Shown: positions 22,685 through 60,990 of the stretch, piece by piece
Layout of the letters: every line of letters begins with the position of its first letter
Numbering within the stretch: position 1 is the first letter of the stretch
Assembly: GCA_964420015.1 (NCBI GenBank)
Contig: CAYQPO010000003.1
Span: 1-63,607, forward strand
Direction: 5' to 3'
DNA: 63,607 nucleotides
Source of the DNA: an uncultured Candidatus Saccharibacteria bacterium
GTDB taxonomy: Bacteria > Patescibacteriota > Minisyncoccia > Phycocordibacterales > SBAW01
Notes under the pieces: generated by a model
The model's input: the letters and a program-made list of their open reading frames with translations, nothing else
The model's database searches: none
What the model was told of the DNA's origin: nothing
Position numbers and translations under genes: made by a program

Positions 22685-22721
22685 GCACAAGAGTTGCAAT
22701 CGTCACTGAAGCCGCAGATAC

Positions 22722-30162: not shown

Positions 30163-30199
30163 CGCACAAACCCTTGATTTCTTATCCTTTTGTCTCCAA

Positions 30200-31375
30200 T
30201 TATGGCAAAAACTTTTTGAACCAACGCCAGAGTTTTGAAAAGAGCTCGCCAAACGAGCCCATCGCCTCGCCTTCGAGCGCTTCACCCTCGCTAAAACCCC
30301 ACACCGTGAGCCCATAGGCGACCGCCCAGCTCGAGTCGCGCAGCTGCATGCGCTGCGGGCCCTCCGCGAGTGCTGCCGAGCGTGACGGGAGCTTCAATGC
30401 AGCTTTAGCTATCTCGGGCATCGAGGAGAGCGCCGAGCCGCCACCGGTCAAAATAATCCCCGCGGGCAAGAGCTCGTTCTTGCCTATTCTTTTCAAATGT
30501 CCCTCGACTAACTTAAACATATCCTGGGTGCGTCGTGTGACGATCTGCTCTATGGTGCGTTTGGGGTAGGGGGCCCCAAGTACGGCACCTTGTTTGAGTT
30601 GCTCGGCCTCCTCTGGCGAGATGCGCAAGCCCAAAGCGAGATCGTTGGTGATGTCGTTTGAACCAATGGGGAACACTTTTATAGAAATCGGCATGCCGTC
30701 TTCGAACACAATTATCGAGAGTGTCTCGGAGCCGATATTGGCAAGCACACAGCCCACGCGCTTTTGCATTTTAGAGAGCGCAATAAATGACGCGGCCAGT
30801 GGTGCGGCAACTATATCCTCGACCTCGAAGCCTGCCTCCTCGGTCGCGGTGACCAGGTCGTTTACGTGGCGCTCTAGGCAAGTAATAAACAGTGTCTCGA
30901 CGCCAACGCGGGCTCCACTCATCCCTACAGGGTTTTTGCCGAGCACTTTCATCCCGTCGAGCGTAAAGCGCAAAGGAATGGTGTGGATGATCTTGCGGTT
31001 TTGCTTGGCTGTTTGGGAGAGCGTCTCCTCGCTCACCTTGATGGCCCGCGGGATATCGCGTGTGCTCACCTGCGAGTCCCCGCGCTCCACCACGACCTCG
31101 CCGCGGGAAAAGCTCTCCTCGAGCCCAATACCCCCGACACCAAGGTAGACCTTTTTAACTTTGACGCGAGCGGCTTTGCTTGCTTGCAAAACCGCCGCGG
31201 CGATCGAGCGCGACACCTCGGGAATAGACACAATATAGCCTTGGCGCATGCCGCGCGATTCTGCATAGCCGGTACCCAAAATGCGAGGGAGCTGTCGTGG
31301 GTCCTCTGAGCTTTCAGCGATGACAACCTTAACGTGATACGTGCCTATGTCGACGCCGGTAACGATCGTGGCCAT
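30200..31375 (-). CDS. ftsA: Cell division protein FtsA
   Basis: GVDIGT, SRGMRQG.I, GSNDITNDLA..L..S..EAEQLK, ILTGGGS, AVAYGL. Confidence 0.95.
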   Translation of the reverse strand: MATIVTGVDIGTYHVKVVIAESSEDPRQLPRILGTGYAESRGMRQGYIVSIPEVSRSIAAAVLQASKAARVKVKKVYLGVGGIGLEESFSRGEVVVERGDSQVSTRDIPRAIKVSEETLSQTAKQNRKIIHTIPLRFTLDGMKVLGKNPVGMSGARVGVETLFITCLERHVNDLVTATEEAGFEVEDIVAAPLAASFIALSKMQKRVGCVLANIGSETLSIIVFEDGMPISIKVFPIGSNDITNDLALGLRISPEEAEQLKQGAVLGAPYPKRTIEQIVTRRTQDMFKLVEGHLKRIGKNELLPAGIILTGGGSALSSMPEIAKAALKLPSRSAALAEGPQRMQLRDSSWAVAYGLTVWGFSEGEALEGEAMGSFGELFSKLWRWFKKFLP

Positions 31376-44568: not shown

Positions 44569-45051
44569 ATGAAACGCATGTTGAAAGTTTTTGGGCCGAG
44601 TATGGTGACTTTTGCATTGGTACTCTTGCCGTTGGGCGTGTTTGCGGCAGGGGATACAGGCATACCTGTCGCTCCGGGTGGAGGATCAACCGGTATACCA
44701 ATTGCACCTGGTGGCGGTTCGACTGGCTATGTGCAGCCTCAATATTCCCAACCCAGCAGCAACAGCTTCTCAGTAGACAACCCGCTTGCGGTGAGCAACA
44801 TCTGTGATGTGCTGCGCTTGTTGCTCAATGCAGCGATCATAATCGGTCTGCCCATCTGCGTGGTCTTTCTAATCTTGGTGGGCTTTCAGTTTGTTATGGC
44901 ACGAGGTAGTGATACGGCACTCACCACCGCTAAAAAAAATCTCATGTACACCGTCATGGGCATAGCGATCTTCCTTGGCGCGTGGACTATTGCCCAGATC
45001 ATCAAAGCGACCCTTCAAGCGCTTGGGGTAACAGGCTTTGGCTCTTGCTAG
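44569..45051 (+). CDS. TrbC/VirB2-like pilin with Gly/Pro linker repeat
   Basis: Signal peptide; NPL...I...L..L; GFQFV.ARG....T.AKK.L.YTV.G.AI..GAW.I. Confidence 0.8.
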   Translation: MKRMLKVFGPSMVTFALVLLPLGVFAAGDTGIPVAPGGGSTGIPIAPGGGSTGYVQPQYSQPSSNSFSVDNPLAVSNICDVLRLLLNAAIIIGLPICVVFLILVGFQFVMARGSDTALTTAKKNLMYTVMGIAIFLGAWTIAQIIKATLQALGVTGFGSC

Positions 45052-47943: not shown

Positions 47944-48025
47944 GCTCCCGTGGCGAAATTGGTAGACGCGCGTGGCTTAGGACCACGTCTCGCAAGAGGT
48001 AGAGGTTCGAGTCCTCTCGGGAGCA
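47944..48025 (+). tRNA. tRNA-Leu(TAG)
   Basis: GCTCCCG/CGGGAGC acceptor, CGTGG-CTTAGGA-CCACG anticodon arm, variable arm. Confidence 0.96.
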
Positions 48026-48186
48026 CAAAATAGACGAACAATCTGCCCTGCGGCAGATTTTTCGCATTTTGTGAGGCGGAGCGATGTTTTGCACTTGCAA
48101 AACCGCGAGCCGGGGTCGCGACCAAACTTTGCGACGGCAAAGTTTGAGTTGTGACCAAAAGACACAAAATCCGCTCCTTTATTTTG
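48026..48186. repeat. tRNA-adjacent multi-hairpin element (copy A)
   Basis: TGCACTTGCA (48090), GAGCCGGGGTCGCG (48107) and AAACTTTGCGACGGCAAAGTTT (48124-48145), shared with copies B and C. Confidence 0.7.
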
Positions 48187-48259
48187 TCCGCCCACCTGGA
48201 CTCGAACCAGGGACCATCTCCTTAAGAGGGAGTTGCTCTACCAACTGAGCTATGGGCGG
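48187..48259 (-). tRNA. tRNA-Lys(CTT)
   Basis: CCGCCCA/TGGGCGG acceptor, loop CTCTTAA, GGTTCGAGTCC T-arm. Confidence 0.95.
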
Positions 48260-48294
48260 TTTTGTTGCGAACGTATGTATGGTTTTACCATAGT

Positions 48295-49173
48295 TTAGAA
48301 AACTTTTCCTCTAACAAATCGAAAGAGCGCTGGGGGAAGTTGTACATACATAAATCCAAAGTGGGATTTAAATTTAGAAAAACCTTTCCAACTTTTGGGC
48401 TGCCCCGAGAACCAAAAGTCAGTGGTCACCGCGTACGTGTACCCGCGTCGCTTTGTTTCGCCAAGCCAGTGGTCGGTAAGCGCGGTTGCGGCGCACACCC
48501 GCGCGCCTTCGTCGGTGACGAAGGGTGAGAGATGCGTCGATGCAAGATGGGTGGGGGAGAATACTATCCCCGTTCCGGCCACCAGTTCTTTTTGCGCGTT
48601 TCGCACTCCCCAGAGCTCTATGTGCTCTTCTAGGCCCATCGCAAAGCGCCGATGCACCCGGTGTAGACGCTCCAAGCCAAGCTTCTTGGCGATGCGACTC
48701 CTCTTATACGCATCACTATATGCATCGAGCGACACGCGCTCGATGGTGTAGTGCTGAGCGAGTGCCTGCCAGCGGCGCAAGTCGCCGCGTGCTTTTTTGC
48801 TCCAGCGATTTGTATAGGGGTCATTTGTAGAGAGATCGATGACCCCATCTATCTGATATGGTTTAGCTGAGAGGGCGAACCAGCCTTTGGGTTTGTCTTT
48901 GCGTCGCAGGCGATGCCAGATCGCGACGCGATTGTAGTTGAGAGACCCTACTTGCGCCGCTTTGCGTAAGTCGGGTTCGGCATCGCCGGTGAACAGCTCA
49001 AGAAAAATTGGCCAAACACCCCAACGCGAGCCGTCTTTTGGGGCGGGGCCAAGTGCTTCGCGTACACAGATGCCCGGCGGGTCGGCGATCTCACCATACT
49101 CGGGCCACAGGTCGGGCGGGACAAAATCGTCGGGCACCTCGACAATCGTGCCGTAGGGAAAATCCATACGCAC
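48295..49173 (-). CDS. GNAT/FemAB-like acyltransferase-fold protein
   Basis: WSKKAR..LRR, .W.V.....LVAG, KGFSKFK..FG pattern seen in FemX-like proteins. Confidence 0.65.
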   Translation of the reverse strand: MRMDFPYGTIVEVPDDFVPPDLWPEYGEIADPPGICVREALGPAPKDGSRWGVWPIFLELFTGDAEPDLRKAAQVGSLNYNRVAIWHRLRRKDKPKGWFALSAKPYQIDGVIDLSTNDPYTNRWSKKARGDLRRWQALAQHYTIERVSLDAYSDAYKRSRIAKKLGLERLHRVHRRFAMGLEEHIELWGVRNAQKELVAGTGIVFSPTHLASTHLSPFVTDEGARVCAATALTDHWLGETKRRGYTYAVTTDFWFSGQPKSWKGFSKFKSHFGFMYVQLPPALFRFVRGKVF

Positions 49174-49184
49174 TACTATAGCAG

Positions 49185-49273
49185 TACCGGGGGAGAGACT
49201 CGAACTCTCACGGAGGGATTTATTCCTCCTCGGGATTTTAAGTCCCGTACGTCTACCATTCCGTCACCCCGGC
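49185..49273 (-). tRNA. tRNA-Leu(TAA)
   Basis: GCCGGGG/CCCCGGT acceptor, CGGGA-CTTAAAA-TCCCG anticodon arm, long variable arm. Confidence 0.96.
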
Positions 49274-49314
49274 GTGTTTATATTTCTACCATAAAATGAT
49301 AGATTATCGAGACT

Positions 49315-49386
49315 GGCCACGTGGCGAAGAAGCAACGCGACGGTCTGCAAAACCGTTATGCGAGGGTGCGAATCCCTCCGTGGCCT
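49315..49386 (+). tRNA. tRNA-Cys(GCA)
   Basis: GGCCACG/CGTGGCC acceptor, ACGGT-CTGCAAA-ACCGT anticodon arm, U discriminator. Confidence 0.95.
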
Positions 49387-49695
49387 CTAGGTTGATAACT
49401 CATCCAATCTGCGCCTATTCTTTTCTCCCAGGTCGATGCGAAACTCCAGATGGGGGATCCGCATCCCGCGCACGCGCTCGCGTAAGTAATCGGCGAGCTC
49501 GGCGCGATTGCGATTGGCAAACTCGAGCGCTCCTTGCTCGCCCGCTTCGGGGTAGACACTAATGTAGATGATCGCGCGCTTGCTGTCCTCACTCATTTCG
49601 GCGCGAGTGACCGTGATGAGGTTGTGGCGGTTGGCCTCGCGGCTCAAAAACTCTGCCGCGGCGTGTTGTACTGCTTCGAGTTGGCGTTCTTTCAT
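49387..49695 (-). CDS. rbfA: Ribosome-binding factor A
   Basis: ITVTR..MS.D.K.A.IY.SV...R..P.L.F..D.G. Confidence 0.9.
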   Translation of the reverse strand: MKERQLEAVQHAAAEFLSREANRHNLITVTRAEMSEDSKRAIIYISVYPEAGEQGALEFANRNRAELADYLRERVRGMRIPHLEFRIDLGEKNRRRLDELST

Positions 49696-49701
49696 ATAAG
49701 A

Positions 49702-51255
49702 CTAAGAGAGCTCGGTGGTGAGTGCTTCGAGTAGGTCGCCCGCTGCAGGCTCGGCAGAGGTCTTGAGCATTACGCCAAACTCTTGGCCCTCTTCGACCAC
49801 GCGCACTTCTTTTTTGTTGGCTTGCAAGCCGACGATGGTTGCATGGCCAAGCTCAAGATCGCGGCGCATGATGCGCAGCTCCTGATTTTGTTTGAGCGAG
49901 CCCTTTTCTACGCGCCCGCCCACGACGACGCGGCCTTTTTGGGCGCTAAAGAATTTGAGCACTTTGGCTGAGCCCACTACCACCTGCGCTTCTACTTTGG
50001 GGCGGCGCTTAGCGGTCGCCTCTTGGAGCCATTCGGCTAGTTTGTAAATGATGTCAAAGGTGGCTATTTCGACCCCGAGTCGCTCTGCGAGGTCGCGGGC
50101 AGGCACATCAACTTTGACGTTAAAGCCGATCACCAAACCGGGAGTCTTGCCGCCACCGACCAACTTAATGTCGTTTTCGGCAATAGTGCCGACGCTGCGG
50201 CTCAAAACGCGCAGTTCAAGTCGCGAATCTTGAGGAAGTTTTGCAATTTCGTGCATCACTGCCTCGCCGGTTCCGGCAAAGTCGGTCTTAATGAGGATAG
50301 GGAGTATCACTTTTACTTCTTCGTCACTTTGGCCGCCAGTCGCCGAACTCTCGCCGCTCGGGCGCTCCGGGCCGCTAGGCCAAGTCCTACCCTCGCTTTG
50401 AGAGTTGCGGCTCTGTGCGGCCAAGGTCTCTGCGTCCTTTTTCTTTTCAACGGTAGTAAATTTTTCACCCACGACGGGGAGTGTTGAAAAACCCACAATG
50501 CGCATCGGGCTGCCGGCCGAAGCCTCTTTAATCGGCCTGCCCAAAAAGTTTTCCATAATCCGCACGGGGGCAAATGCACCACCAGCCACAACGAATTGCC
50601 CACTCTCAACATGGCCGTCGCGTACAACGAGTGTCGCGGTGTTGCCACGTTTGTTGTCGACGTGCGCCTCGATCACCAACCCCTCGCCCGGTTTTTTGAG
50701 ATCAGCACTCAAACCTTTGAGCTCGGCTGCAAGCAAGATGAGGTCAAGCAACTCCGGAACCCCTTCGCCACTTTTGCTCGAGATGCCTACCCAAGGGATG
50801 TCGCCACCGTAGCCCTCCAAATAAATTTGATGCTCTAAGAGCGAGCCTTTCGCTTTTTCTAATTGAGAACCGGGTTTGTCTATTTTGGTGAGCGCTACCA
50901 CAAACGGGATTCCCACACTTTGGATGAGTTTGTATGCCTCGAGTGTTTGCGGTTTGACCCCATCTTCTGAAGACACAACCAAAATTGCCACGTCAGCGAC
51001 CTCGAGCCCGCGGGCACGCATCCCGGCAAAGGCCTCGTGCCCGGGAGTATCCAAAAAGGTGATGCGGTGCTCGCCCGAGGCATTTTTGTGCACAGCCTCA
51101 TAGGCCGAAAGATGCTGCGTTATGCCGCCCGCCTCGCCCTCGACCACATTTGTTTTGCGGATATAGTCGAGTAGCGTCGATTTGCCATGGTCGATATGAC
51201 CCACGACCGCGACAATAGGGGGCCGCAGAGCGGCTGTGGGGTTAGGTTTGGGCAT
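49702..51255 (-). CDS. infB: Translation initiation factor IF-2 (short form, no N-terminal domain)
   Basis: GHIDHGKSTLLD, GGITQH, DTPGHEAF, TKID, IIYKL. Confidence 0.96.
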   Translation of the reverse strand: MPKPNPTAALRPPIVAVVGHIDHGKSTLLDYIRKTNVVEGEAGGITQHLSAYEAVHKNASGEHRITFLDTPGHEAFAGMRARGLEVADVAILVVSSEDGVKPQTLEAYKLIQSVGIPFVVALTKIDKPGSQLEKAKGSLLEHQIYLEGYGGDIPWVGISSKSGEGVPELLDLILLAAELKGLSADLKKPGEGLVIEAHVDNKRGNTATLVVRDGHVESGQFVVAGGAFAPVRIMENFLGRPIKEASAGSPMRIVGFSTLPVVGEKFTTVEKKKDAETLAAQSRNSQSEGRTWPSGPERPSGESSATGGQSDEEVKVILPILIKTDFAGTGEAVMHEIAKLPQDSRLELRVLSRSVGTIAENDIKLVGGGKTPGLVIGFNVKVDVPARDLAERLGVEIATFDIIYKLAEWLQEATAKRRPKVEAQVVVGSAKVLKFFSAQKGRVVVGGRVEKGSLKQNQELRIMRRDLELGHATIVGLQANKKEVRVVEEGQEFGVMLKTSAEPAAGDLLEALTTELS

Positions 51256-51261
51256 GAGATT

Positions 51262-51783
51262 TTACTTTTTGCGTGCACGGGTGATGTGCTCTTGCGCTTT
51301 GGCTATAGACTCTTTTTCCTCGTCGGTTAGTTCAAAAGACGAGACGCCTTGGGCAAGGGGCTTGGCATAGACCCCAACCCGGTCGCGCGCATAGAGAGTG
51401 GAGAATACCACGCCCGAACCCTGCTCGTCGAGGAAGGCTACGCAAAAGCTCTGGTTGCCGCCTTGGCCCTCGGCAAAGGGATTGAAGCGCACCACACCCA
51501 CTCCCTGCACGCTCTGACGCAAACGTGCCTCGGCAAGCTTAAGATATTTTTCGAGCTCTGCACGAAACTCTTTATGATCGGCGTTGTCTTTGAGCAGTTT
51601 CTGCAATGTCTCTTCAAGCAAGCCGCTTGCGCCAGGGCTCAGGCGCCGTATCCGGCGATGCAAAAAAGTGATGTGTAGCAGCGCAATGAGCCCCAAGAGT
51701 ACGCCAAGCGCCGCAAAGAACGGAGCCCAAAATATGAGATGGGCTATAAGAAATGTTTTGACGGCCGCTGCAGACAAAGGCAT
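51262..51783 (-). CDS. DUF4446-family protein
   Basis: TM then VGVVRFNPF...GGNQSF..A.LD..G.GVV.S.LY.R....YAKP...G.S...L..EE. Start trimmed to MPLSAA. Confidence 0.85.
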   Translation of the reverse strand: MPLSAAAVKTFLIAHLIFWAPFFAALGVLLGLIALLHITFLHRRIRRLSPGASGLLEETLQKLLKDNADHKEFRAELEKYLKLAEARLRQSVQGVGVVRFNPFAEGQGGNQSFCVAFLDEQGSGVVFSTLYARDRVGVYAKPLAQGVSSFELTDEEKESIAKAQEHITRARKK

Positions 51784-51806
51784 AGAAACAGTATACTCTC
51801 TAGCGT

Positions 51807-52964
51807 ATGTTTTGGAATCGACGCATCTACGCCGACGCCGCGGCCGCAACGCCGCTTTCAAAGCTTGCCAAACGCGAGTTTGAGCGACTTTTGTGCGTGT
51901 ATGGCAATGCAGGTGCGATCCACCAAGAGGGCCTCGCTGCCAAACAAGAACTTGAACGTGCGCGTGCAACGGTTGCAGCGTGCATCGGCGCGCATGCCGA
52001 CGAAATTATTTTTACTGCTTCGGGCACCGAGGCCAACAACTTAGCGATTGGCATCGCTACACAAAATGCTCAGCATGGTATTACGAGCGCAATAGAGCAC
52101 GCTTCGGTGCTCGAGTCGCTGCGCGCAAGCGGCGCTCGCATAACTAAGGTGGCAGTTGATAGCGAAGGGATGCTTTTCCCCAGTGGAGTTGCCATGGTGA
52201 TCGCGTCCGACACGACCTTTGCCTCAATCCAGTTAGTTAATAGCGAAATAGGGAGCATGCAGCCCGTACGCGAGATAGGCAAAGAGCTTAAGCGCGCCAA
52301 GAAAAATATTATTTTCCACACCGATGCGGCGCAGGCTCCCCTTTGGATGGAGCTCAACGTCGAGCGTCTTGGCGTCGATCTTCTGAGCCTCGATGCACAA
52401 AAAGTAGGAGGACCTAAGGGTGTCGGTGCTCTATATATAAGGAGGGGAACTCCACTGCGCACACAGCTCCTCGGGGGTAAGCAGGAGCGCGGCTTGCGTG
52501 CGGGCACTGAAAATGTGCCAGCGATTGGTGCTTTTGCCATTGCGCTGCAAGAAGCTAAGCGTGGGGTAGCGAAGCGTGCTGCAAGAATGACAAAGCTACG
52601 CGATTATTGTTTTGTGGAGATCAAAAAAGTCCTACCCGATGTAATTTTAAATGGCCCCAAACTCGATAGTGCGCGCATCGCCAACAACCTCAACATCTCA
52701 ATCCTTGGGCTTGATGCGCAAATGGCAGTGGTCTCACTCGACAGCTTGGGCGTCGCGGCTTCGAGCAGGAGCGCCTGCGATGTCGGGCAAGAGGAGCCGT
52801 CTCATGTCATCAAAGCCATTACACAAACCGTCGCAGATCCTGAGCGCAGTCGAAGGACCGGCACCGCGATCCGCCTCACCTTCTTGCCCAACTTTTCTAA
52901 GCGACAAGGGCGCCGCATTGCACAGGCGCTCAAAGAAACTGCTGAGCGCTACCGCAAGATCTAG
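51807..52964 (+). CDS. Cysteine desulfurase (IscS/NifS class V aminotransferase)
   Basis: YAD.AA.TP, SGTEANN, NSEIG, FHTDAAQ, AQK.GGPKG.G, GTENV, SACD. Confidence 0.92.
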   Translation: MFWNRRIYADAAAATPLSKLAKREFERLLCVYGNAGAIHQEGLAAKQELERARATVAACIGAHADEIIFTASGTEANNLAIGIATQNAQHGITSAIEHASVLESLRASGARITKVAVDSEGMLFPSGVAMVIASDTTFASIQLVNSEIGSMQPVREIGKELKRAKKNIIFHTDAAQAPLWMELNVERLGVDLLSLDAQKVGGPKGVGALYIRRGTPLRTQLLGGKQERGLRAGTENVPAIGAFAIALQEAKRGVAKRAARMTKLRDYCFVEIKKVLPDVILNGPKLDSARIANNLNISILGLDAQMAVVSLDSLGVAASSRSACDVGQEEPSHVIKAITQTVADPERSRRTGTAIRLTFLPNFSKRQGRRIAQALKETAERYRKI

Positions 52965-53003
52965 CGGTTTCTTTTTTCTAAAAAATGTCCTATAATTCGC
53001 TTA

Positions 53004-53783
53004 ATGGACATCGAGCATCTCACCAAACATCAGATAGTGCTCCTAACCCTTTTGGTGAGCTTTGTGACGTCCATAGCAACCGGTATCGTCACCGTGTCTT
53101 TGATGGACCAAGCGCCGCCTTCGGTAACCCGCACGATCAACCAGATCGTCGAGCACACGGTAGAAAAAGTGGTCCCCGCCGCGACACCCGTGATGGCAAC
53201 TAGTGGCGGCACCGTAACCAAAGAGACCACGGTGGTGGTTAAAGATGATGACCTGGTTGCACAGTCGATTGCCAAAGTTCAAAAGGCGATTGTGCGTATC
53301 GTGAGCAAAAATGATCCGCAGACACTCGTCGCACGCGGCATTATTGTCGACAACAAGGGAGTCGTCATCTCCGACCGCGGGGCGCTCGAGCCCATGGGCA
53401 CGGTCAACTTTTTGGCCTACTTGCCCGACGGCTCTCAGGTGCCCGCGGTGATGCGCATCCCCGATGCTACCTCCTCGGTTGTCTACCTCGACCTACAGGT
53501 TGCCTCAAGCTCGGTAAAGTTTGCCCCAGCGGCCATAGCCGACCAAAGCAAACTCCAGTTAGGCCAGAGTGTTATACGCATCGGAGGCGGCGGGGGAGAT
53601 GTCGTAGGCACCGGTGTTATAGCCCACCTCCCCCAACCTCACGACGATCTCATTCAGGCGAGCGTAGTCTCAACGACACCGGGTTCGGTACTCCTAACCC
53701 AGTTTGGCGAGATCATTGGCATCGTCACTGGTCAATCTCAAGTCTCAGGTGCAGACTTTTACACCCTAGTCTCAAGCCCTTAA
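53004..53783 (+). CDS. Trypsin-like (HtrA-related) membrane-anchored protein, catalytic motifs degenerate
   Basis: TM; V.KV..A.V.I; G.I....G.V; L.LGQ.V. The TNxH and GNSGG positions read ISDR and STTPG. Confidence 0.7.
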   Translation: MDIEHLTKHQIVLLTLLVSFVTSIATGIVTVSLMDQAPPSVTRTINQIVEHTVEKVVPAATPVMATSGGTVTKETTVVVKDDDLVAQSIAKVQKAIVRIVSKNDPQTLVARGIIVDNKGVVISDRGALEPMGTVNFLAYLPDGSQVPAVMRIPDATSSVVYLDLQVASSSVKFAPAAIADQSKLQLGQSVIRIGGGGGDVVGTGVIAHLPQPHDDLIQASVVSTTPGSVLLTQFGEIIGIVTGQSQVSGADFYTLVSSP

Positions 53784-53799
53784 GCTAATCTAAAAATCT

Positions 53800-56532
53800 A
53801 TGCCCCCATTCCATCACTTCACCACCAAAGCAAAAGAAGCCGTTCGTCGAGCCCACGAGCTCGCCGTGGAGCGGGGCCAAAATCAAGTAAGCCCGCTCCA
53901 CCTTTTAGGCGCGCTTCTCCTGCAAGAGGAGAGCACGGTTATCTCGGCACTTGAGCGCCTTGAGATCGACTCGACCTTGCTCACGGATACTGTGCTCGAG
54001 AGTTTGGAGACGCCGGGTGCGGGCTCGGTGCTTAGTCCTAGCTACCAGCTCTACCTCACGCCTGAGCTCGTACAAGCGCTTGAGCGCTCCGCTAAAGTTG
54101 CTACTGAGACGCAAGACGAGTTTGTAAACACCGAACACCTTTTTATAGCAATCATCGACGTGCCCGGCTCGGCACGAGATCTTCTTAACCGTTTTCGCAT
54201 TACCCGCGAGGGGATGATGCGCGCGCTCATGGAGCTGCGCCAAAACAAACAGTCTCAAGCCGAAGCCCCAAAAAAGTTTCGTGCACTGCAAAAATATACC
54301 CGCTCGCTCACTAAGATGGCGCTCGAGAACAAACTCGATCCAGTAATCGGCCGCGACGAGGAGATTTCCCGCGTAATCCAAATCTTGAGCCGCCGCACTA
54401 AAAACAATCCGATCCTCATTGGTGAGGCGGGCGTGGGCAAAACTGCAATCGCCGAAGGGTTGGCCTCGCGCATAGCAACCGGCGACGTGCCTGACAGCCT
54501 GCGTGACAAAGACTTGGTTAGCCTCGACTTGGGCGCACTCATCGCGGGGACCAAATATCGCGGCGAGTTTGAGGAGCGCCTCAAGGCGATCATGAAAGAA
54601 GTCGAGCGCGCCGAGGGTAAAGTGATCCTCTTTATTGACGAGATTCACACCGTAATTGGTGCAGGGTCAGCCGATGGCGCAGTAGACATGTCTAACATGA
54701 TCAAACCTGCCCTCGCACGCGGCGAGATGCGTGTTATAGGCGCGACCACCTTGCGCGAATATCAAAAGTACATCGAGCGCGACCCAGCCTTCCAGCGCCG
54801 CTTCCAGCCGGTCTATGTGCTTGAGCCCGCTATAGACGACGCGACCGCAATTTTGCGCGGATTGAAAGAAAAATACGAGCTCTTCCATGGCGTGCACATT
54901 ACCGACGATGCACTGGTGGCTGCGGTCGAACTCTCGGCGCGCTACATTCCCGACCGTTTTTTGCCTGATAAAGCGATCGATCTCATCGACGAGGCCTCCT
55001 CGAGTCTGCGCATTTCGCTTGAAAATAAACCCCCGATGCTCGAAGATGCGCACCGTAAGATTATGCGCCTCGAGGTAGAGAAAGAGGCACTGCGTAAAGA
55101 TGCGGCAATAGAGAACGAAGAAGGCAAGCCCACCCGCCAATCTGGCGCGCGCAAGGCTGCGACCCGTGTTAAAGCGATAGAGAAAGAGGTCGCCGAACTC
55201 AAAGAAGAGACGCACGAACTTGAGCTGCGCTGGAAGAACGAAAAGCAGGTCTTAGGCGACATCAAGTCGATTAAAAAAGAGCTTGAGGGTTTGCGCATCG
55301 AGGCCGATGCTGCCGAAAGCTCGGTCGATCTCTCGCGTGCAGCCGAGATCCGCTACGGAGAGATCCCCGGCCTTGAGCGTGAACTCGAACAAAAACAAAA
55401 ACGCCTCAAAAAACTCCAGTCGACCCGCCGGATCCTTAAAGAAGAAATCATGGAAAGCGACATCGCTGCGGTGGTTGCCAAATGGACCGGCATCCCGGTT
55501 TCGCGCATGCTCGAAGAGGAGGCCGAGCGTCTCTCGCGCATTGAAACTGAGCTCCAAGCCCGGGTGGTGGGCCAAAGCGAGGCGGTGCAAAAGGTCTCTG
55601 ATGCGGTCAAACGCTCGCGTGCGGGCATCGCCGACCCTAATCGTCCGATCGCCTCGTTTATGTTTCTTGGCCCTACCGGCGTGGGCAAGACCGAACTCAC
55701 CAAAGCGCTCGCCGGCTTTATGTTCGACGACGAGCGCGCGCTCATCCGCGTCGACATGTCTGAGTATATGGAGAAGCACAGCGTCTCTAAACTTATCGGT
55801 TCGCCCCCGGGCTATGTGGGCCACGACGAGGGCGGCGGGTTGACCGAGCTGGTGCGCCACCGACCCTATGCGGTATTGCTTTTTGATGAGATCGAGAAGG
55901 CCCACCCCGAGGTCTTTAATATCCTCCTGCAAGTGCTCGATAACGGCCAATTGACCGACGCCAAGGGCCGCAAGGTCAACTTCCGCAACACGATCATCAT
56001 TATGACGAGCAACATCGGTGCGCAATACATCGACCGCATGGAGCAGCTCGGGTTTGCGCTCAGTGGCAGGGGGGAAGAGGCCGACTACAAAATGGCTAAA
56101 GAAAAAGTGGAACAGAGCCTCAAGGACTACTTCCGCCCCGAATTCTTAAACCGCATCGACGAAATTATCATCTTTAATATCCTCTCACCTGAGGCGGTCA
56201 AAGAGATCGTCGGTATCCAGGTTAAAGAGGTGATAGAACGTCTGGCAACTAAAGAAATTACGCTCACCATTATGCCCGCAGTGTACGACTACCTGGCCAA
56301 GGAGGGCTACAACCCACACTACGGCGCTCGCCCGCTGCGCAGGCTCATTCAGGACAAAATCTTGACCAAAGTGGCGTCGCTAATGGTCTCTCGCGGTGTG
56401 CTCTCGGGTGGGGCAGTGACGATCGACCTGGGGCCCAAAGGGGACTTCATATTCGACGTCAAAAAAGGTTCGGCTCCAAGCAGACGCAAAGTCTCGGCTG
56501 CAACGATTGCCGAAGAGAAAGTTGGAGCGTAA
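53800..56532 (+). CDS. clpB: ATP-dependent chaperone ClpB
   Basis: Clp-N repeats, GEAGVGKT, long coiled-coil M domain, [14 protein letters not shown]-type [13 protein letters not shown]. Confidence 0.95.
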
Positions 56533-56543
56533 TATAGGGTGAC

Positions 56544-56627
56544 GCGTCGGTGGCGGAGTGGTCAATCGCAACTGGCTGTAAACCAGTCGCCCTTGTGGCT
56601 ACGTAGGTTCGAATCCTACCCGGCGCA
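56544..56627 (+). tRNA. tRNA-Tyr(GTA)
   Basis: GCGTCGG/CCGGCGC acceptor, ACTGG-CTGTAAA-CCAGT anticodon arm, variable arm. Confidence 0.96.
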
Positions 56628-56814
56628 CAAAACGCAAGCACCCCTTTGGGGGTGTTTTGCGTTTTGTGGCATGGAGCAGAGTGTTCAAACACTCTGCGTG
56701 TAGGATTCGAACGCCGGACCGTTGCCCTGCACTTGCAGGGCCGGGAGGCGGTGCCCAGACAAAACTTTGCGACGGCAAAGTTTTAGTCGAGGGAGAATCC
56801 TACCCGGCGCACCA
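56628..56814. repeat. tRNA-adjacent multi-hairpin element (copy B) with duplicated tRNA 3' end
   Basis: Inverted T-arm GTAGGATTCGAAC (56700-56712); shared palindromes; GAATCCTACCCGGCGCAC repeated at 56611 and 56795, the distal copy ending in CCA. Confidence 0.8.
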
Positions 56815-56846
56815 ATTGGTCAAGATTTAGGGTGTATGATTAGTGC

Positions 56847-58346
56847 ATGAAGCTCAGGGCTTTGCTCTTTGTGTTTGCATGGGCTACTCTCCTTGCGCCG
56901 CAGTTTGCGTATGCCCAGCTCCCCAAGCCGACCTGTACCATTACGGCAAGCTCGGGCTCGGTTACGGTAGGGCAGACCACCAACCTTTCGTGGAGCAGTC
57001 AAAATGCCACTGCAGCCAACATCACCAGTCTTGGTTCAGTAAGCCTCTCGGGCACACAGGGCGTGATCCCCACGCCACCCAAAACTACCTACGTGGCGAC
57101 CTTTACTGGCCCTGGCGGGAGCGCAGTGTGTTCGATCGTCATTACCGTTAACTCAGGCAATGGCTCGGGCGGCTACCAAGACAGCGCGACCCCCACCACC
57201 GGTACTAACCCCATTGTGGGCGCGGGCAGCAACAGCGCTCCGCAGAGTATCGTGCCGTGCAATGGTATCGACTGCCAGGCATGCAATGTTGCGCAACTCG
57301 TGCAGCGTGTCATCAACTGGCTGATCGGCTTTTCTATCCCGCTTGCGGCAGCAATGTTTGCCTGGGCGGGCGCCGAGCTGGTCTTTTCAGGAATGAATGG
57401 AAATGAGGGTAAACGTAAATTTGCTCTTGGGATATTCAGGAATGTCGGGATTGGTTTTGTGATCGTGCTGTGCGCCTGGCTCGCTGTACAAACAGTGCTC
57501 AAAACGATCCTCAAACCGCAATATTATAAGAGCTGGAATACGATCCAGTGCATCCAAGCAAACAACAACACGGCGGGCGGCCGCCAGCTCAACAAAAGTA
57601 TCAATGATCTACTAAATTCTTTGCCAATCATTAATTCTAATGCGCTGCCTATATCGGTAGCGCCAGGTGGAACATTCACCGGGGTCGGGGGAGAATTCAA
57701 GAGTTCAGGCTCTTTGGGTTCATGCCCACCAGGTTACTCATATTTACCCGATGCAGACGCGTGCTCTAATGCTGATGGCACAAATTTTGTCGACCCTTCT
57801 TACAAAAATACCGGTGCCAAGGGTATCTGCTCGCCAGGATATTCATATCTGCCAGACGCTGATATGTGTTCCAACGAGGACGGCTCTTCGGTAGTCGATC
57901 CAACTCCGTTTCCAACAAAAGGTACCGCAGGAGCTTTGTGTGCTAACGACAATCCGGCTTGCAGCACAGCTGCTTTGCAAGAGTACGGTTTGACTCAAGC
58001 ACAGGCGAACGCCATGTCATGCATCGCTATCACCGAGAGTGGCGGCAACCCGAGTACACCTAACAGTAATACTGGCGCGTGCGGTACGTTCCAAATAACC
58101 AACCAGACGAGCAGAAGTAATTGGCAAAATCCGATATACCATGGAGACGGATGTAGTGCTGCGACTTCTTGCAACAATGCCGGTTGCAATCTCCAAACGG
58201 CAGTATTGATGTTCAATCAAAACGGATATCAACCATGGACTGGCGTCTGCAACTCGCCAGGCGGCTGCGGTGGGACGCCTTATGGTCAGGCGTGGAATCC
58301 CAGCGCCCGATCATGCGTCCAACGATATGACCCGGGTAATCTATAA
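56847..58346 (+). CDS. Secreted fusion: Ig-like domain + VirB2-like pilin + Cys-rich repeats + lysozyme/SLT-like transglycosylase
   Basis: Signal AYAQ; LSWSSQNA; FAWAG.ELV..G...KRKFA..F..V.IG.VI.L.AW; two CxPGYSYLPDADxCSN repeats; IA.TESGGNP...GACG.FQI...G..PW. Confidence 0.8.
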   Translation: MKLRALLFVFAWATLLAPQFAYAQLPKPTCTITASSGSVTVGQTTNLSWSSQNATAANITSLGSVSLSGTQGVIPTPPKTTYVATFTGPGGSAVCSIVITVNSGNGSGGYQDSATPTTGTNPIVGAGSNSAPQSIVPCNGIDCQACNVAQLVQRVINWLIGFSIPLAAAMFAWAGAELVFSGMNGNEGKRKFALGIFRNVGIGFVIVLCAWLAVQTVLKTILKPQYYKSWNTIQCIQANNNTAGGRQLNKSINDLLNSLPIINSNALPISVAPGGTFTGVGGEFKSSGSLGSCPPGYSYLPDADACSNADGTNFVDPSYKNTGAKGICSPGYSYLPDADMCSNEDGSSVVDPTPFPTKGTAGALCANDNPACSTAALQEYGLTQAQANAMSCIAITESGGNPSTPNSNTGACGTFQITNQTSRSNWQNPIYHGDGCSAATSCNNAGCNLQTAVLMFNQNGYQPWTGVCNSPGGCGGTPYGQAWNPSARSCVQRYDPGNL

Positions 58347-58352
58347 AACAAT

Positions 58353-58922
58353 ATGGAACCGACAAAACACATAGGGGTTTGGATCGCGCTAGCTTTACTG
58401 GCGATTTTTATCATAGTCGTAATAGTGTTGGCCATGCTACGTAGTTCATCGACACAGACGCAACAAATATCAACGAATACTCAAACCTCACCCGCATATA
58501 ACAACAGCAGCTCCGTAGGTGCTGATCAAAGCAATCTCGCCGCCTCAAGCACAATGGTCACCTCGGTTGCGACTTTTAACGGGGGCACAATTCAAACCAA
58601 AGATTTTCTTTCCGGTCCGGATGCACAACAAGACCCGGTCAATCCCGGATATTATGAACTCGGCAATAACGAAACGGCTGGAGCGTATAGCATTGTGTAT
58701 ATTGCTAAGGGACAGTATTTCAACATCACTCTCTTGCAGAAGCCTATAGGCCCCGCTCGAGTGAACGCCGAAAAATATCTTATGGACCTATTGGGTATCT
58801 CAAGTGCAGCAATATGCGTTCTCAAATACTCAGTCACAGTACCTGTCTCGGTAGACCCAAAACATGCGGGGGTTGATTTAGGCTTCAGTTTCTGCCCAAC
58901 CGCCGTTCCATTGGGTAATTAA
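58353..58922 (+). CDS. Membrane-anchored hypothetical protein
   Basis: N-terminal TM, S/T/Q linker, C-terminal Cys pair (ICVL...FCP). Confidence 0.72.
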   Translation: MEPTKHIGVWIALALLAIFIIVVIVLAMLRSSSTQTQQISTNTQTSPAYNNSSSVGADQSNLAASSTMVTSVATFNGGTIQTKDFLSGPDAQQDPVNPGYYELGNNETAGAYSIVYIAKGQYFNITLLQKPIGPARVNAEKYLMDLLGISSAAICVLKYSVTVPVSVDPKHAGVDLGFSFCPTAVPLGN

Positions 58923-58981
58923 CACTCAGTTGCGCTAAAAAGGCTTGTGCGGTATAGTCTTTTGGTCTTTATAGGCAATCT

Positions 58982-59140
58982 ATGTCCCAAGACCGACTCA
59001 TAAAACTACAATGCTCCAAGTGCAAGCGCATCAACTACTGGAGCTCCAAAAATAAAAAACTCGTCACACGCAAGATCGAGCTCAACAAGTTTTGCAAGTG
59101 GTGCAAGGCCTCGACCAAGCACGTCGAAACTCGAAAATAG
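58982..59140 (+). CDS. rpmG: 50S ribosomal protein bL33 (Zn-binding form), absent from the ORF track
   Basis: MSQDRLIKLQCSKCKRINYWSSKNKK...KIELNKFCKWCKASTKHVETRK, translated by hand. Confidence 0.95.
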   Translation: MSQDRLIKLQCSKCKRINYWSSKNKKLVTRKIELNKFCKWCKASTKHVETRK

Positions 59141-59163
59141 GGTATACTCTTTTTCGTACCCTC

Positions 59164-59234
59164 GGGCGCTTAGTTAAATGGTATAACAACGGTCTCCAAA
59201 ACCGTTATTGGGGGTTCGATTCCCTCAGCGCCCG
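59164..59234 (+). tRNA. tRNA-Trp(CCA)
   Basis: GGGCGCT/AGCGCCC acceptor, ACGGT-CTCCAAA-ACCGT anticodon arm. Confidence 0.95.
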
Positions 59235-59390
59235 CAATGATAAACAAGGCCGTCTGGGAGACGGCCGCGTTTAGCATCATTGCGCGGCAGCAGAGGGAAT
59301 CGAAAGGCGCAGGCCCGACGGGGCCGAGGCGGGGTCGCGCAAAAACCCAGCAGGGTTTTATGCGTGACCGATTCCCTCAGCGCCCGCAAT
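59235..59390. repeat. tRNA-adjacent multi-hairpin element (copy C) with duplicated tRNA 3' end
   Basis: Inverted T-arm GAGGGAATCGAA (59293-59304); GAGGCGGGGTCGCG (59326); 22-bp CGATTCCCTCAGCGCCCGCAAT at 59217 and 59369. Confidence 0.8.
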
Positions 59391-60903: not shown

Positions 60904-60990
60904 TGGTGCCGGGAGAGAGAATCGAACTCTCATGACCTTGCGGTCGATGGATTTTGAGTCCATTGCGTCTACCAATTCCGCCATCCCGGC
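60904..60990 (-). tRNA. tRNA-Leu(CAA) with encoded CCA
   Basis: GCCGGGA/TCCCGGC acceptor, ATGGA-CTCAAAA-TCCAT anticodon arm; ends GGCACCA. Confidence 0.96.

Follow-up and report, generated by a model that had tools for sequence, protein, structure and literature searches.

Structured non-coding inserts with duplicated gene 3′ ends follow tRNA genes in a Saccharibacteria contig and across Patescibacteria

Three non-coding units follow tRNA genes on the forward strand of the window (the whole 63,607-nt stretch analysed, contig CAYQPO010000003.1 of an uncultured Candidatus Saccharibacteria bacterium): one after tRNA-Leu(tag) (47944–48026; ARAGORN, Rfam), one after tRNA-Tyr (56544–56628), and one after tRNA-Trp (59164–59235). 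The units are built in a common order: the tRNA 3′ segment (S), a terminator-like hairpin (H1), a segment that is the reverse complement of the intact target (S′), hairpins A and B, and a second copy of S; as the insert rebuilds the end that it displaces, the gene stays intact. The point at which the target gene is split is fixed and written L|S; it usually lies at U55/C56 of the T-loop, and otherwise among the last nucleotides of the gene. On the uninterrupted target, S′ spans from 2–5 nt left of the split to 10–20 nt right of it. S′ can pair with either copy of S, and pairing with the distal one closes a three-way junction, P1-A-B, in which the last base of hairpin B directly adjoins the displaced native S. 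The conserved fold has three arms, of which the closing one pairs with the target gene.

In the Leu copy, H1 (48024–48073; placed by fold, terminator scan, and coordinates) begins on the final 3 nt of the tRNA (CACAAAAT...ATTTTGTG) and has a terminator-like inner stem, AATCTGCC/GGCAGATT. It is followed by S′ (ATTTTGTG, 48066–48073), the 5′ strand of P1 and reverse complement of the tRNA end plus trailer, hairpin A (48075–48111; GGC GGA GCG .. CGC GA GCC, loop ACTT; covariance model and alignment), hairpin B (48114–48156; GGTCGCG ... TGTGACC, loop GACG), and the distal S (CACAAAATCC, 48163–48172), which forms the 3′ strand of P1 and repeats 8 nt of tRNA end plus trailer. This 8-mer, CACAAAAT, stands at 48024–48031 and again at 48163–48170; the copy has no T-arm inversion, its closing helix being ATTTTGTG against CACAAAAT. 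The covariance-model match covers 48063–48165 at 104 bits.

The Tyr copy carries an 18-nt direct repeat, GAATCCTACCCGGCGCAC, at 56611–56628 (the last 18 nt of the tRNA, the proximal S) and 56795–56812. Its H1 (56626–56668; fold, terminator scan, and coordinates) is flagged as terminator-like, and an extra hairpin X (GCAGAGTGTTCAAACACTCTGC, 56676–56697) precedes S′; long variants elsewhere in the family have this hairpin, too, directly before S′. S′ (GTAGGATTCGAAC, 56700–56712) exactly inverts 13 nt of the Tyr T-arm, from G53 to the end of the T-stem. Hairpin A (56713–56749; covariance model) and hairpin B (56754–56793) follow, with a covariance-model match at 56701–56803 (106 bits). The distal S (56795–56815) is the displaced native tRNA-Tyr 3′ end and runs on into the ancestral flank as far as the pilin gene; it reads ...GCGCACCA and keeps CCA, whereas the intact tRNA-Tyr is followed by CAAAAC.

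Similarly, the Trp copy is bounded by a 22-nt direct repeat, CGATTCCCTCAGCGCCCGCAAT, at 59217–59238 (proximal S) and 59369–59390 (distal S), which takes in the tRNA-Trp 3′ end with 3–4 nt of trailer. H1 (59234–59283; fold and coordinates) reads GCAATGAT ... ATCATTGC with the inner stem GGCCGTCT/AGACGGCC, and S′ (GCGGCAGCAGAGGGAATCGAA, 59284–59304) inverts the 3′ half of the T-arm and the acceptor 3′ strand, being 86% complementary over 21 nt. Hairpin A (59307–59330; covariance model) has a short form with loop GACG, hairpin B (59333–59369) reads GGTCGCGC ... GCGTGACC with loop AGCA, and the covariance-model match at 59294–59378 scores 57 bits. The modules, hairpins, inverted T-arms, direct repeats, and retained CCA described in the original prediction are thus all present where it placed them; its size of 155–190 bp needs correction, since the three real units measure 139 nt (Leu), 184 nt (Tyr), and 152 nt (Trp) from repeat to repeat.

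The units also share sequence: AAACTTTGCGACGGCAAAGTTT (48124 and 56762) and TGCACTTGCA (48090 and 56728) are common to the Leu and Tyr copies, GAG(C/G)CGGGGTCGCG (48107 and 59326) is common to Leu and Trp, and a 73-nt stretch is 78% identical between Leu (48077–48149) and Tyr (56715–56787). Folding against shuffled sequences gave z values of −8.6, −8.8, and −7.8 for the Leu, Tyr, and Trp units, with 0 of 200 shuffles as good. We dismissed an assembly artefact, because each of the three units is crossed without a mismatch (100% identity) by independent Logan contigs, which come from three samples, and likewise a chance origin, because direct repeats of at least 11 nt flank 58 of 120 family copies and 0 of 120 controls with shuffled tails. 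The three units are genuine members of a widespread family of non-coding inserts.

A search with a covariance model derived from 5 copies revealed 221 copies at 182 public loci, 120 of them from a genome scan, the loci of relatives, and the window, the other 101 from metagenomes that were scanned independently. The inserts span approximately 100–190 bases (99–190 bp; median unit 166 nt) and matched no Rfam family; this family in the tRNA and tmRNA 3′ ends of ultra-small (CPR) bacteria is apparently undescribed so far. Most copies come from Patescibacteria (Saccharibacteria, Paceibacterota, Kaiser-, Adler-, and Nomurabacteria) and some from Elusimicrobia, a wider range than the Parcubacteria initially proposed for a scan. 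A same-strand tRNA or tmRNA gene lies within 250 nt upstream in 156 of the 221 copies (71%), compared with an opposite-strand one in 9, and the targets comprise 19 tRNA amino-acid families and tmRNA; the expected restriction to tRNA 3′ ends therefore stands for most copies but not for those at tmRNA or the few at the 3′ ends of topA and rpsI. Copies at different targets within one genome can be close in their cores (identity 0.71 for Tyr versus Leu in the window and 0.83 for L035 versus L090, against a background median of 0.44). Tandem arrays occur at five loci (L044, L122, L047, L035, L129); H1 after the proximal S is optional, and rare members carry 1–5 kb of cargo there (L084, L074, L069, L188, L206), with defence-type genes among it.

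No ORF or enzyme gene lies inside the modules or consistently adjoins them, in agreement with the proposal of a single non-autonomous family. Clustering of 833 neighbouring ORFs returned housekeeping families only, and the co-distributed recombinase or HUH nuclease initially envisaged did not emerge among these neighbours. The copies have no linked enzyme gene; the fetched loci contained neither RAYT nor TnpA, and no IS110, TnpB, IscB, or reverse transcriptase gene lies near the copies.

Comparison with relatives identified the second S as the displaced native gene end. The distal Tyr S and its flank in the window align with the uninterrupted tRNA-Tyr-CCA and flank of L005, a relative without the insert, and tRNA-Leu gives the same displaced-end pattern (L005 versus L003 and L004), bearing out the att-like nature claimed for the duplications. 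Furthermore, filled and empty sites alternate among relatives with shared gene order. Within the window's own population, we saw no excision joints or empty alleles among assembled contigs.

The fold was assessed in an alignment fitted to the model; for most copies, the A-B linker and a portion of helix B had been set by the retrieval pattern. In this alignment, 93.7% of cells were paired (68% in shuffles), double changes occurred in 29 of 32 pairs, and the covariation score was 0.51 (shuffles, 0.14; slid partners, 0.06–0.09). G.U/U.G combinations numbered 237 versus 35 for A.C/C.A, and the G.U at pair 5 of helix B was kept in 15 of the 16 copies that had not been chosen by the retrieval pattern. 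The fold carries a conserved G.U pair, tandem G.A pairs, and a K-turn-like GGA/GA loop, and its structure is conserved on the tRNA-sense strand only. These features indicate that the folded strand acts as RNA, single-stranded DNA being less likely. As RNA evidence, a single contig of a bovine metatranscriptome extends from tRNA-Tyr across H1 and into an element, with DNA carry-over possible.

A host-level RNA function (termination, processing, or protein binding) would account for such conservation without mobility. It is nevertheless improbable, in our judgement, that the units are simply host small RNAs derived from trailers, processed from tRNA precursors, and duplicated along with tRNA gene ends, for example as protein-binding RNAs or mimics of the tRNA top half. 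In E. coli, some functional RNAs derive from tRNA 3′ trailers; orientation here is always that of the upstream gene, the K-turn-like loop and conserved G.U suggest protein recognition, and in the long variants L109, L059, and L096, where hairpin X splits S′ at the acceptor/T-stem boundary, P1 resembles an acceptor/T minihelix with an NCCA end. However, some relatives have an insert where others of like gene order lack it, some copies stand in tandem arrays or carry cargo, and Rfam gave no tRNA-like or Y-RNA match for the units. In many copies, moreover, the closing helix P1 consists of trailer or protein-coding sequence, so that tRNA mimicry is not general and the tRNA-processing or decoy RNA reading raised in the original prediction fits these copies poorly.

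The repeats have defined boundaries. Most often they begin at −19 relative to the tRNA end called by ARAGORN, a position corresponding to C56 of the T-loop, and most often they stop at that tRNA end. On the element side, the junction reads ..GTGAC(C)| in every case, and the junctions in protein genes are similar (rpsI, GGTC|GAAAC; topA, GGGAC|AAAAAC). A repeat from the T-loop to the tRNA or tmRNA 3′ end with regeneration of the gene is reportedly (Williams 2002, Nucleic Acids Res) the signature of T-loop-class integrases. The inserts might accordingly be miniaturised genomic islands (attL - remnant - attR) moved as double-stranded DNA by a tyrosine or serine integrase encoded elsewhere, with hairpins A and B as arm-type or accessory protein-binding DNA. 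tmRNA is a classic target of such enzymes, some cargo is of defence type, and a large serine recombinase adjoins tRNA-Glu in the window; yet the island of this recombinase has no module, the ORFs adjoining modules in L069 and L206 are unrelated to it, and no integrase lies within or beside any of the 221 copies. Hairpins A and B show compensatory changes and strand-specific G.U pairs, which point to a folded single strand rather than protein-binding duplex DNA. A double-stranded circle of 99–190 bp suits a recombinase poorly, the repeats range in length from 8 to more than 100 nt, and a duplex att site has no use for an inverted target copy at a distance of 100 nt. We consider this explanation very unlikely.

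The match between S′ and its target is specific. Perfect runs of at least 11 nt between S′ and its own tRNA occurred in 32 of 78 copies (41%), compared with 0.46% of non-cognate pairs, and the outer stem had a mean perfect complement of 9.3 nt to its own tRNA versus 5.0 nt to non-cognate ones. The T-arm inversion therefore tracks the adjacent tRNA, and the outer stem is customised to each host gene, as had been claimed. In 65 of 78 copies, S′ is a better match to the intact proximal S than to the distal S; the source of this tracking could be templated palindrome correction rather than a guide function, and the "templated copy mechanism" offered earlier for the match is a reasonable inference. 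Some duplications are long and host-specific (more than 100 nt in L084, 57 nt in L031, 40 nt in L014) and look like in-situ duplication rather than a site that the element brought with it. Where topA is the target, the two S copies agree fully at their 5′ side and then diverge as orthologues do, with frame and stop codon kept: L020 shows 33 identical nt followed by 6 synonymous changes, and in L082 the zinc-ribbon part differs by 7 synonymous and 1 non-synonymous change.

These observations bear on a possible but rather unlikely origin without any dedicated enzyme, in which replication would switch templates from one tRNA locus to another at two microhomologies present in every tRNA gene of these genomes (T-loop, CGAATCC; trailer, CACAAAA). 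Quasi-palindrome (Ripley-type) correction would then have perfected the match of S′ to the neighbouring tRNA, natural transformation and homologous recombination would carry copies between genomes (left arm, tRNA and proximal S; right arm, distal S), and the RNA fold would be kept for its action on the transcript, such as insulating, terminating, or processing. The lack of a linked enzyme gene agrees with this, as do repeat boundaries that both coincide with these microhomologies (C56 at the start; the tRNA end or CA(AAA) at the other side), the host-specific flank in some long repeats, the better proximal fit of S′, and the topA pattern, which is exactly that predicted by a crossover inside the distal S. 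CPR bacteria depend on DNA uptake, and the window contains pilin and type IV secretion-like genes. On the other hand, rare double switches would be needed hundreds of times, at no fewer than 19 tRNA families in several phyla; the multicopy distribution, tandem arrays, and cargo resemble a selfish element; the transcript-level role is hypothetical; and a right homology arm of 18–22 nt is very short for RecA-dependent exchange.

Our best reading, which we hold tentatively, takes the inserts to be site-specific, non-autonomous insertion cassettes. At the centre of each would be a structured, RNA-like single-strand module, which pairs with the target. The folded module would be the cis-acting site, with transposition or integration carried out in trans. 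Pairing of S′ with the target would set the target L|S bond at the place of the element's own B|S bond, the bases of S′ that match L may serve as a toehold for the uninterrupted site, and cutting and rejoining at the junction could be performed by an enzyme encoded elsewhere or by the RNA itself; this reaction is hypothetical. The duplicated S would keep the host gene alive and would provide homology for precise loss, tandem arrays, and spread between genomes by homologous recombination. The earlier interpretation is thus largely supported, with too narrow a scope.

Several known systems share parts of this design. Among mobile-RNA guides (the group I internal guide sequence, group II EBS/IBS, IS110 bridge RNA, OMEGA RNA) and the HDV-like ribozyme of R2, whose P1 uses 28S target sequence, we likewise find an element segment complementary across the insertion point, in the 5′-3′ order of an internal guide sequence, and a structured scaffold abutting target-derived sequence. 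The insert module, by contrast, has no known intron or ribozyme catalytic core, is too small at 75–110 nt, and gave nothing in Rfam; its target-derived 3′ segment is paired with S′, not free as in a guide. REPIN/RAYT and IS200/IS605-derived palindromes are also small, non-coding, multicopy, non-autonomous elements with structure on one strand and no enzyme in cis, a single-copy HUH enzyme acting in trans, and IS608 reads its cleavage sites by guide-base pairing beside a hairpin and inserts 3′ of a short motif; these systems differ in having no target duplication, no tie to tRNA genes, and guides of 4–5 nt versus 10–20 nt. In the forked hairpin of CTXphi attP(+) and in integron attC, where host- or trans-encoded recombinases act, inverted and direct target copies likewise form a target-mimicking stem topped by a branched region, and tandem arrays occur. 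The inserts, however, use many target sequences rather than dif or attI, contain no XerCD or IntI core motifs (no RYYYAAC/GTTRRRY), place the crossover point at the very end of the stem, and duplicate the gene 3′ end. Compared with the T-loop integrative elements of tyrosine integrases (genomic islands, prophages), they lack an integrase, have a median length of 166 nt rather than kilobases, and combine a folded single-strand module at the right end with a target-matched S′ and variable repeat length; both nevertheless sit within the 3′ portion of a tRNA or tmRNA gene, with a direct repeat from T-loop to 3′ end, a regenerated gene, the displaced end at the far side, tandem insertions, and some cargo.

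Eleven tRNA genes were located in the window (ARAGORN and Rfam), three of which carry an insert, and the non-coding stretches after these three genes, tRNA-Leu(tag) (47944-48026), tRNA-Tyr (56544-56628) and tRNA-Trp (59164-59235), are built on one common plan. In the Tyr copy, the 3' segment of the gene (S, 56611-56628) is followed by a terminator-like hairpin (H1, 56626-56668), an extra hairpin (X, 56676-56697), the reverse complement of S (S', 56700-56712), two conserved hairpins (A, 56713-56749; B, 56754-56793) and a second, distal S (56795-56812) followed by CA, giving a displaced gene end of ...GCACCA. The Trp copy comprises S (59217-59238), H1 (59234-59283), S' (59284-59304), A (59307-59330), B (59333-59369) and the second S (59369-59390), and the Leu copy an H1 (48024-48073) whose 3' arm ATTTTGTG serves also as S', A (48075-48111), B (48114-48156) and CACAAAAT repeated at 48163-48170. 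Hairpins A and B are common to the Leu and Tyr copies (78% identity over 73 nt). The original prediction had described these units correctly at every coordinate checked, with one correction needed: in the Leu copy, the pairing partner is the tRNA end plus trailer instead of the T-arm. Assembly artefact, which it had named as a possible source of the duplications, was ruled out by independent contigs from three samples carrying all three units at 100% identity and zero differences.

All three window units were far better folded than shuffled controls (z of -7.8 to -8.8). Hairpin H1 has the build of an intrinsic terminator, a G+C-rich stem followed by a T run; the terminator scan of the + strand flagged the Tyr H1 and, in part, the Leu H1, and the Trp H1 has no T run on that strand. 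Minimal copies are without H1 and have a gap of 6-20 nt in its place. Nearly all window tRNA genes end in the discriminator base and a single C (60904-60990 versus the rest), full CCA being encoded only by tRNA-Leu(caa) and the displaced Tyr 3' end among all 11, and CAAAA starts many of their trailers. Logan contigs of the source samples stop exactly at tRNA 5' ends (contig L001 starts at window position 56544, tRNA-Tyr, and contig L002 ends at 59167, the 5' end of tRNA-Trp), which suggests graph branching at tRNA genes in the source community.

A covariance model was built from five copies, and genomes were scanned with a motif common to three of these founders. The returns were mostly Patescibacteria with some Elusimicrobia, and the few chance matches in G+C-rich genomes were all turned down by the covariance model. 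Carriers within the Patescibacteria include Saccharibacteria, Paceibacterota and Kaiser-, Adler-, Nomura-, Campbell-, Zambryskii-, Taylor-, Niyogi-, Falkow- and Berkelbacteria. A further 101 copies came from an independent scan of metagenomes, for a total of 221 in 182 loci. A tie to tRNA 3' ends, in line with the original prediction, is seen across these copies: a tRNA or tmRNA gene lies within 250 nt upstream on the same strand for 156/221 copies versus 9/221 on the opposite strand, and within 250 nt downstream for 32/221 (same strand, tRNA clusters) and 9/221 (opposite strand). Most remaining copies sit at block or contig edges or after divergent tmRNA genes, which ARAGORN missed and Rfam found at loci L075 and L123. 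Nineteen tRNA amino-acid families and tmRNA are in use as targets; the tRNA-end family first proposed from the window is real, and its scope is far wider than could be seen there. A few copies occupy similar motifs in protein genes, namely the last codons of rpsI (loci L090 and L117, junction GGTC|GAAAC) and the C-terminal zinc ribbon of topA (loci L082 and L020, junction GGGAC|AAAAAC), where a full substitute C-terminus with its stop codon is provided by the proximal S.

No Rfam model covered the element at any threshold tried; Rfam 15 (gathering score for the window plus 18 loci, a relaxed cut-off of E up to 10 for the three units, and one of E up to 0.1 for 8 further loci) matched only tRNA, tmRNA and one unrelated LOOT RNA. 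A full-text literature search found the family described nowhere. An IMG/VR scan for phage or plasmid origin gave 10 pattern matches with one true copy, and this origin was rejected, as that sole copy sits in a cellular-looking tandem array. The family is one of widespread structured cassettes that sit within tRNA gene ends, have a target-matched closing helix and have so far gone unannotated. The LOOT RNA (RF03000, 72.7 bits) lies at 6513-6628 of L083, a Saccharibacteria contig that also has two tandem modules after a tmRNA-like end. Another short conserved motif (AAAGGTGTAC(A/T)G..CCTGTAAGG) occurs in loci L011 (~2733-2913) and L087 (~124-353), between tRNA 3'-end copies and upstream of a three-way-junction module, with an extra tRNA-Phe repeat starting further upstream in L011 (~position 49); it may represent a second family of tRNA-nesting elements.

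Flanking repeats of at least 11 nt were present in 58/120 copies and 0/120 shuffled controls, at a spacing equal to unit length (99 to 408 nt, median 166 nt). There is a sharp peak of repeat starts at -19 relative to the tRNA end called by ARAGORN, corresponding to T-loop C56 (CGA(A/T)TCC...), and repeat ends peak at the tRNA end. A second class of copies, including the window Leu copy, is split at the gene's final bases (GCAC|AAAA.., TCC|ACAAAA..). On the element side the right junction is always GTGAC(C), and on the target side the junction always follows ...C (GGTTC|, GGTC|, GGAC|, GCAC|). The claim that each unit is customised to its adjacent tRNA held across the family, the longest perfect complement of S' averaging 9.3 nt in its own tRNA versus 5.0 nt in non-cognate tRNAs, with runs of at least 11 nt in 32/78 own-tRNA comparisons versus 0.46% of non-cognate ones. 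S' also crosses the split, with bases complementary to 2-5 nt on the left side of it, and matched the intact proximal copy better than the distal copy in 65/78 cases. In long variants (loci L109, L059 and L096), S' covers the entire acceptor strand and trailer, and hairpin X splits it exactly at the acceptor/T-stem boundary. Differences between S copies lack adenine specificity, and a diversity-generating retroelement (template/variable repeat) was rejected; so were target-specific lineages, with same-tRNA copies across genomes at 0.449 and random pairs at 0.453.

The main rival explanation for these footprints invokes no dedicated enzyme: two template switches at microhomologies present in all tRNA genes (T-loop, CACAAAA trailer) would account for both repeat boundaries, quasi-palindrome correction would fit S' to the adjacent gene, and alleles would spread by transformation and recombination. 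Long host-specific repeats favour it, as do the topA cases, in which the S copies agree fully over their 5' side before showing orthologue-like differences with the reading frame kept; in L020, 33 identical nt precede 6 synonymous changes with a conserved stop position, and the zinc-ribbon part of L082 has synonymous versus non-synonymous changes of 7 to 1. We nevertheless consider this combined origin rather unlikely: it leaves the conserved fold of a selfish-looking multicopy element, described below, unaccounted for, unless the RNA has a function at transcript level.

Direct evidence for insertion came from relatives. Proteins labelled Kaiser-, Adler-, Nomurabacteria or Paceibacterota share 80-88% identity with the window ClpB, and the window organism, from a rock metagenome, is a Paceibacteria-type CPR bacterium. 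Three related contigs (L003, L004 and L005) keep the order ClpB, tRNA-Tyr, pilin-like gene, small ORF, L33, tRNA-Trp, M48-like gene, miaA and ParB, except that L005 has no tRNA-Trp there, the M48-like gene is in L003 only and the L004 contig stops at miaA. In L005, tRNA-Tyr is uninterrupted and CCA-ending; the flank after it is the flank found after the distal S in the window, as far as the pilin-like gene's start codon, and the sequence after the window's proximal Tyr S has no counterpart at this L005 gene. Conversely, L005 carries a copy at tRNA-Leu(tag) (18-20-nt repeat) that the window is without, whose distal S and flank align to uninterrupted tRNA-Leu ends in L003 and L004, and a second copy missing from the window, after tRNA-Lys. 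Because distal S and flank match uninterrupted genes in relatives, the distal S is the displaced native gene end. The presence/absence differences proposed for such elements were thus found as filled and empty sites among the window and its three relatives, and, judged by these alignments, close lineages differ through gain or loss of units. Assembled contigs of the source population held no joints skipping units, that is, no empty-site or excision variants.

The tRNA genes Tyr, Cys, Leu-caa and Lys/Leu-tag change orientation among the same four sequences, protein-gene order being otherwise kept (tRNA-Tyr: window 56544 +, L005 12765 +, L003 13233 -, L004 13816 -), and the inverted tRNA-Tyr has small ORFs inserted downstream of it. 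Two degenerate reverse-complemented tRNA-Tyr 3' ends (TGTGCGCCGCGTGGAACGAAAT...) at L004 12711-12738 and 13309-13335 flank single small ORFs beside the inverted gene; these bracketed ORFs look like tandem small inserts of a different kind at tRNA-Tyr.

We then considered the fold, in which S' and distal S form a helix (P1) that meets A and B in a three-way junction (the module). In the model alignment of 118 sequences, 93.7% of cells were paired versus 68% in shuffles, both sides changed in 29/32 pairs, and the covariation score was 0.51 versus 0.14 in shuffles and 0.06-0.09 for slid partners, this alignment being fitted to the model and the retrieval pattern having fixed the A-B linker and part of helix B. 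Independent of these cautions, RNAalifold gave 18 compensated pairs for the five founders, and in 16 copies unselected by the pattern the base of helix B was kept as GG(U/C)CG...UG(A/G)CC, with pair 3 exchanged from U-A to C-G and 15/16 having G.U at pair 5. The outer helix of hairpin A covaries (GCC/GGC, ACC/GGT, GAC/GTC, AAC/GTT) enclosing an invariant G(G/C)A-versus-GA loop. Since G.U/U.G pairs outnumber A.C/C.A pairs (237 vs 35; 122 vs 33 without forced pairs), the structure forms on the tRNA-sense strand only, and a frequent P1 variant has tandem G.A pairs in place of two Watson-Crick pairs at its junction end (GACGAGAA). Such features are typical of RNA, folded single-stranded DNA being the less likely form.

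One bovine metatranscriptome contig spans Elusimicrobium tRNA-Tyr, H1 and element, hinting faintly at co-transcription of the two, and a second metatranscriptome search returned low-share runs only. A purely host-functional trailer RNA is an explanation that fits the evidence less well and that we hold to be highly improbable. General tRNA mimicry was dropped, as many copies build P1 from trailer or coding sequence; Rfam matches bearing on membership of the tRNA-like, YrlA or tmRNA classes were only the genuine upstream tRNA and tmRNA genes, and hairpins A and B stand where a tRNA-like RNA has its T-loop.

Signs of mobility were found within genomes. Core identity between copies at different targets was 0.71 for window Tyr versus Leu, 0.83 for L035 versus L090 (MAG ELA755) and 0.71 for Val(gac) versus Val(tac) of one MAG, against a background median of 0.44 and 95th percentile of 0.68. 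H1 differs between closely related copies at different targets within a genome, which leaves S'-A-B as the conserved unit. Five loci have tandem arrays (L044, L122, L047, L035 and L129), and in rare members cargo lies between proximal S and S' (L084, 2.5 kb with a repeat of >100 nt; L074, 1.1 kb with two tRNA genes; L188, 1.3 kb). Defence-type islets lie between two modules at a tRNA end in L069 (1481-4423; ThsB-like TIR, DUF4231/SLATT and PGDYG protein) and L206 (235-4903; KAP-family NTPase). Overall, cargo ORFs encode a membrane protein, DnaJ zinc finger, ThsB-TIR, DUF4231/SLATT, KAP NTPase and an IGPS fragment, alongside tRNA genes; cargo-free units of 99-236 nt contain no ORFs.

The search for a co-distributed recombinase or HUH nuclease suggested by the original prediction, covering the loci and the window, found no linked gene. 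All-against-all clustering of 833 neighbouring ORFs returned housekeeping genes only, with no recombinase family enriched; no recombinase, transposase or reverse transcriptase was found in or beside any copy, cargo variants included; and no HUH gene was present among the scanned ORFs of the 63.6-kb window or in the fetched loci. Classical duplex integrase action, for which the duplicated gene ends could speak, accordingly fits less well, and we regard it as very unlikely. A large serine recombinase (Pfam Resolvase and Recombinase, 12899-14614, -) adjoins tRNA-Glu in the window; it was rejected as mobiliser, there being no module in its island and the module-adjacent ORFs in L069 and L206 being dissimilar. 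Its 3' end overlaps tRNA-Glu on the opposite strand (12888-12960), and a low-G+C stretch follows (0.46-0.50, ~16000-24700) with hypothetical ORFs, an Mrr-type endonuclease (21770-22684) and a CHAT-domain protein (22722-24719); the region is probably a genomic island integrated at tRNA-Glu. Elsewhere, the window encodes a VirB4/HerA-like ATPase and several T4SS-pilin-domain proteins (168-3167, -; 44569-45051; 56847-58346), one of which, in relatives, has a C-terminal portion like a lytic transglycosylase; the pilin-like gene immediately 3' of the Tyr unit is syntenic in relatives. The window also holds dnaA (27304-28782, +), ftsZ/ftsA (28840-31375, -) and gyrA (37466-39949, +) together; its GC skew gave no clear origin signal and was uninformative on leading/lagging placement of the units.

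The established features are a fixed insertion point, a duplicated gene end, an S' matching the uninterrupted target, a three-way junction conserved on one strand, and a last base of B that abuts S. As S' can pair with either S copy, the split-point bond in the gene or empty target (L|S) and the bond at the element's right end (B|S) can share one place in the fold, and the S' bases matching L would confer preference for the uninterrupted target. This pairing and shared bond position lead us to propose the module as the cis-acting site of a pairing-directed single-strand cut-and-join performed in trans, a reading we favour with slightly less than even confidence. The duplicated S would keep the host gene functional and provide homology for precise loss, tandem amplification and genome-to-genome transfer through homologous recombination. 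A bolder version, which we consider distinctly unlikely, is a categorically new pairing-guided insertion system with P1-A-B as its RNA or single-stranded DNA component: the element-borne S' would recognise its target through base pairs on both sides of the insertion point, and a reaction at the three-way junction would exchange B|S in the element for L|S in the target. Catalysis would fall to the RNA itself, then a mobile ribozyme of very small size, or to a protein of the host or encoded in trans that recognises only the fold, and an altered S' would retarget the system.

CPR/Patescibacteria genomes are tiny (~1 Mb), and several of their tRNA genes carry the insert despite this. The family is invisible to current annotation, having no Rfam model, no description found in the literature and no ORF in its cargo-free units; its practical effects are contig breaks at tRNA genes and false partial-tRNA calls. 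The units mark integration hot spots with accumulating defence islets, and the covariance model offers an immediate means of taking a census. If the fold is the cis site of pairing-directed insertion, this would be a compact system, naturally retargeted to 19 tRNA families, tmRNA and two protein genes, and relevant to mobile-DNA biology and genome-engineering tools; if it acts on the transcript, it would be a major unknown player in tRNA operon expression across a third of bacterial diversity.

Among known systems, the unit shares the att-like footprint of integrative elements targeting the tRNA T-loop: the insert lies between direct repeats of the tRNA's 3' part, and the gene is restored. Whereas tRNA/tmRNA integrase islands carry an integrase gene beside the att site, the unit has none. 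MITEs have terminal inverted repeats and a fixed-length duplication; here the ends (left, S or H1; right, GTGACC) have no inverted-repeat relation, and the duplication ranges from 8 to >100 nt. Like REPINs and IS200/IS605 derivatives, the unit would be a small structured element moved in trans. IS200/IS605-type elements go in 3' of a brief conserved motif and duplicate no target; here every junction follows ...C, but S is duplicated. Its target is presented or read by pairing as in the CTXphi forked hairpin, attC sites and intron or bridge-RNA guides. Integron attC/CALIN sites have RYYYAAC ... GTTRRRY core sites; the P1 strands are target-specific (e.g. GGGAATCG/CGATTCCC) without a conserved core-site motif, and neither attC nor dif motifs were found in the unit. 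Group I/II introns possess a catalytic core (P3-P9; domains I-VI), whereas the module is only 75-110 nt, and Rfam gave no intron match (gathering score; E up to 10, window units; E up to 0.1, eight loci). No Rfam matches were obtained for hammerhead, HDV-like, twister, pistol, hatchet or hairpin ribozymes, and direct reading indicates that hammerhead and HDV-like core motifs are absent, the junction strands of GAA(A/G), GG and zero nt being unlike the hammerhead core (CUGAUGA/GAA/NUH). OMEGA and IS110 bridge RNAs are encoded at the end of TnpB, IscB or IS110 elements, and no such gene lies beside any copy; retrons combine an a1/a2 closing stem with an adjacent reverse transcriptase, of which the unit has the stem only. 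The unit therefore does not belong to the integrative elements, CTXphi, attC, introns or bridge RNAs, and probably not to the REPIN/IS200 elements, and we class the cassettes as a variant among tRNA-targeting insertion elements and non-autonomous structured mini-elements.
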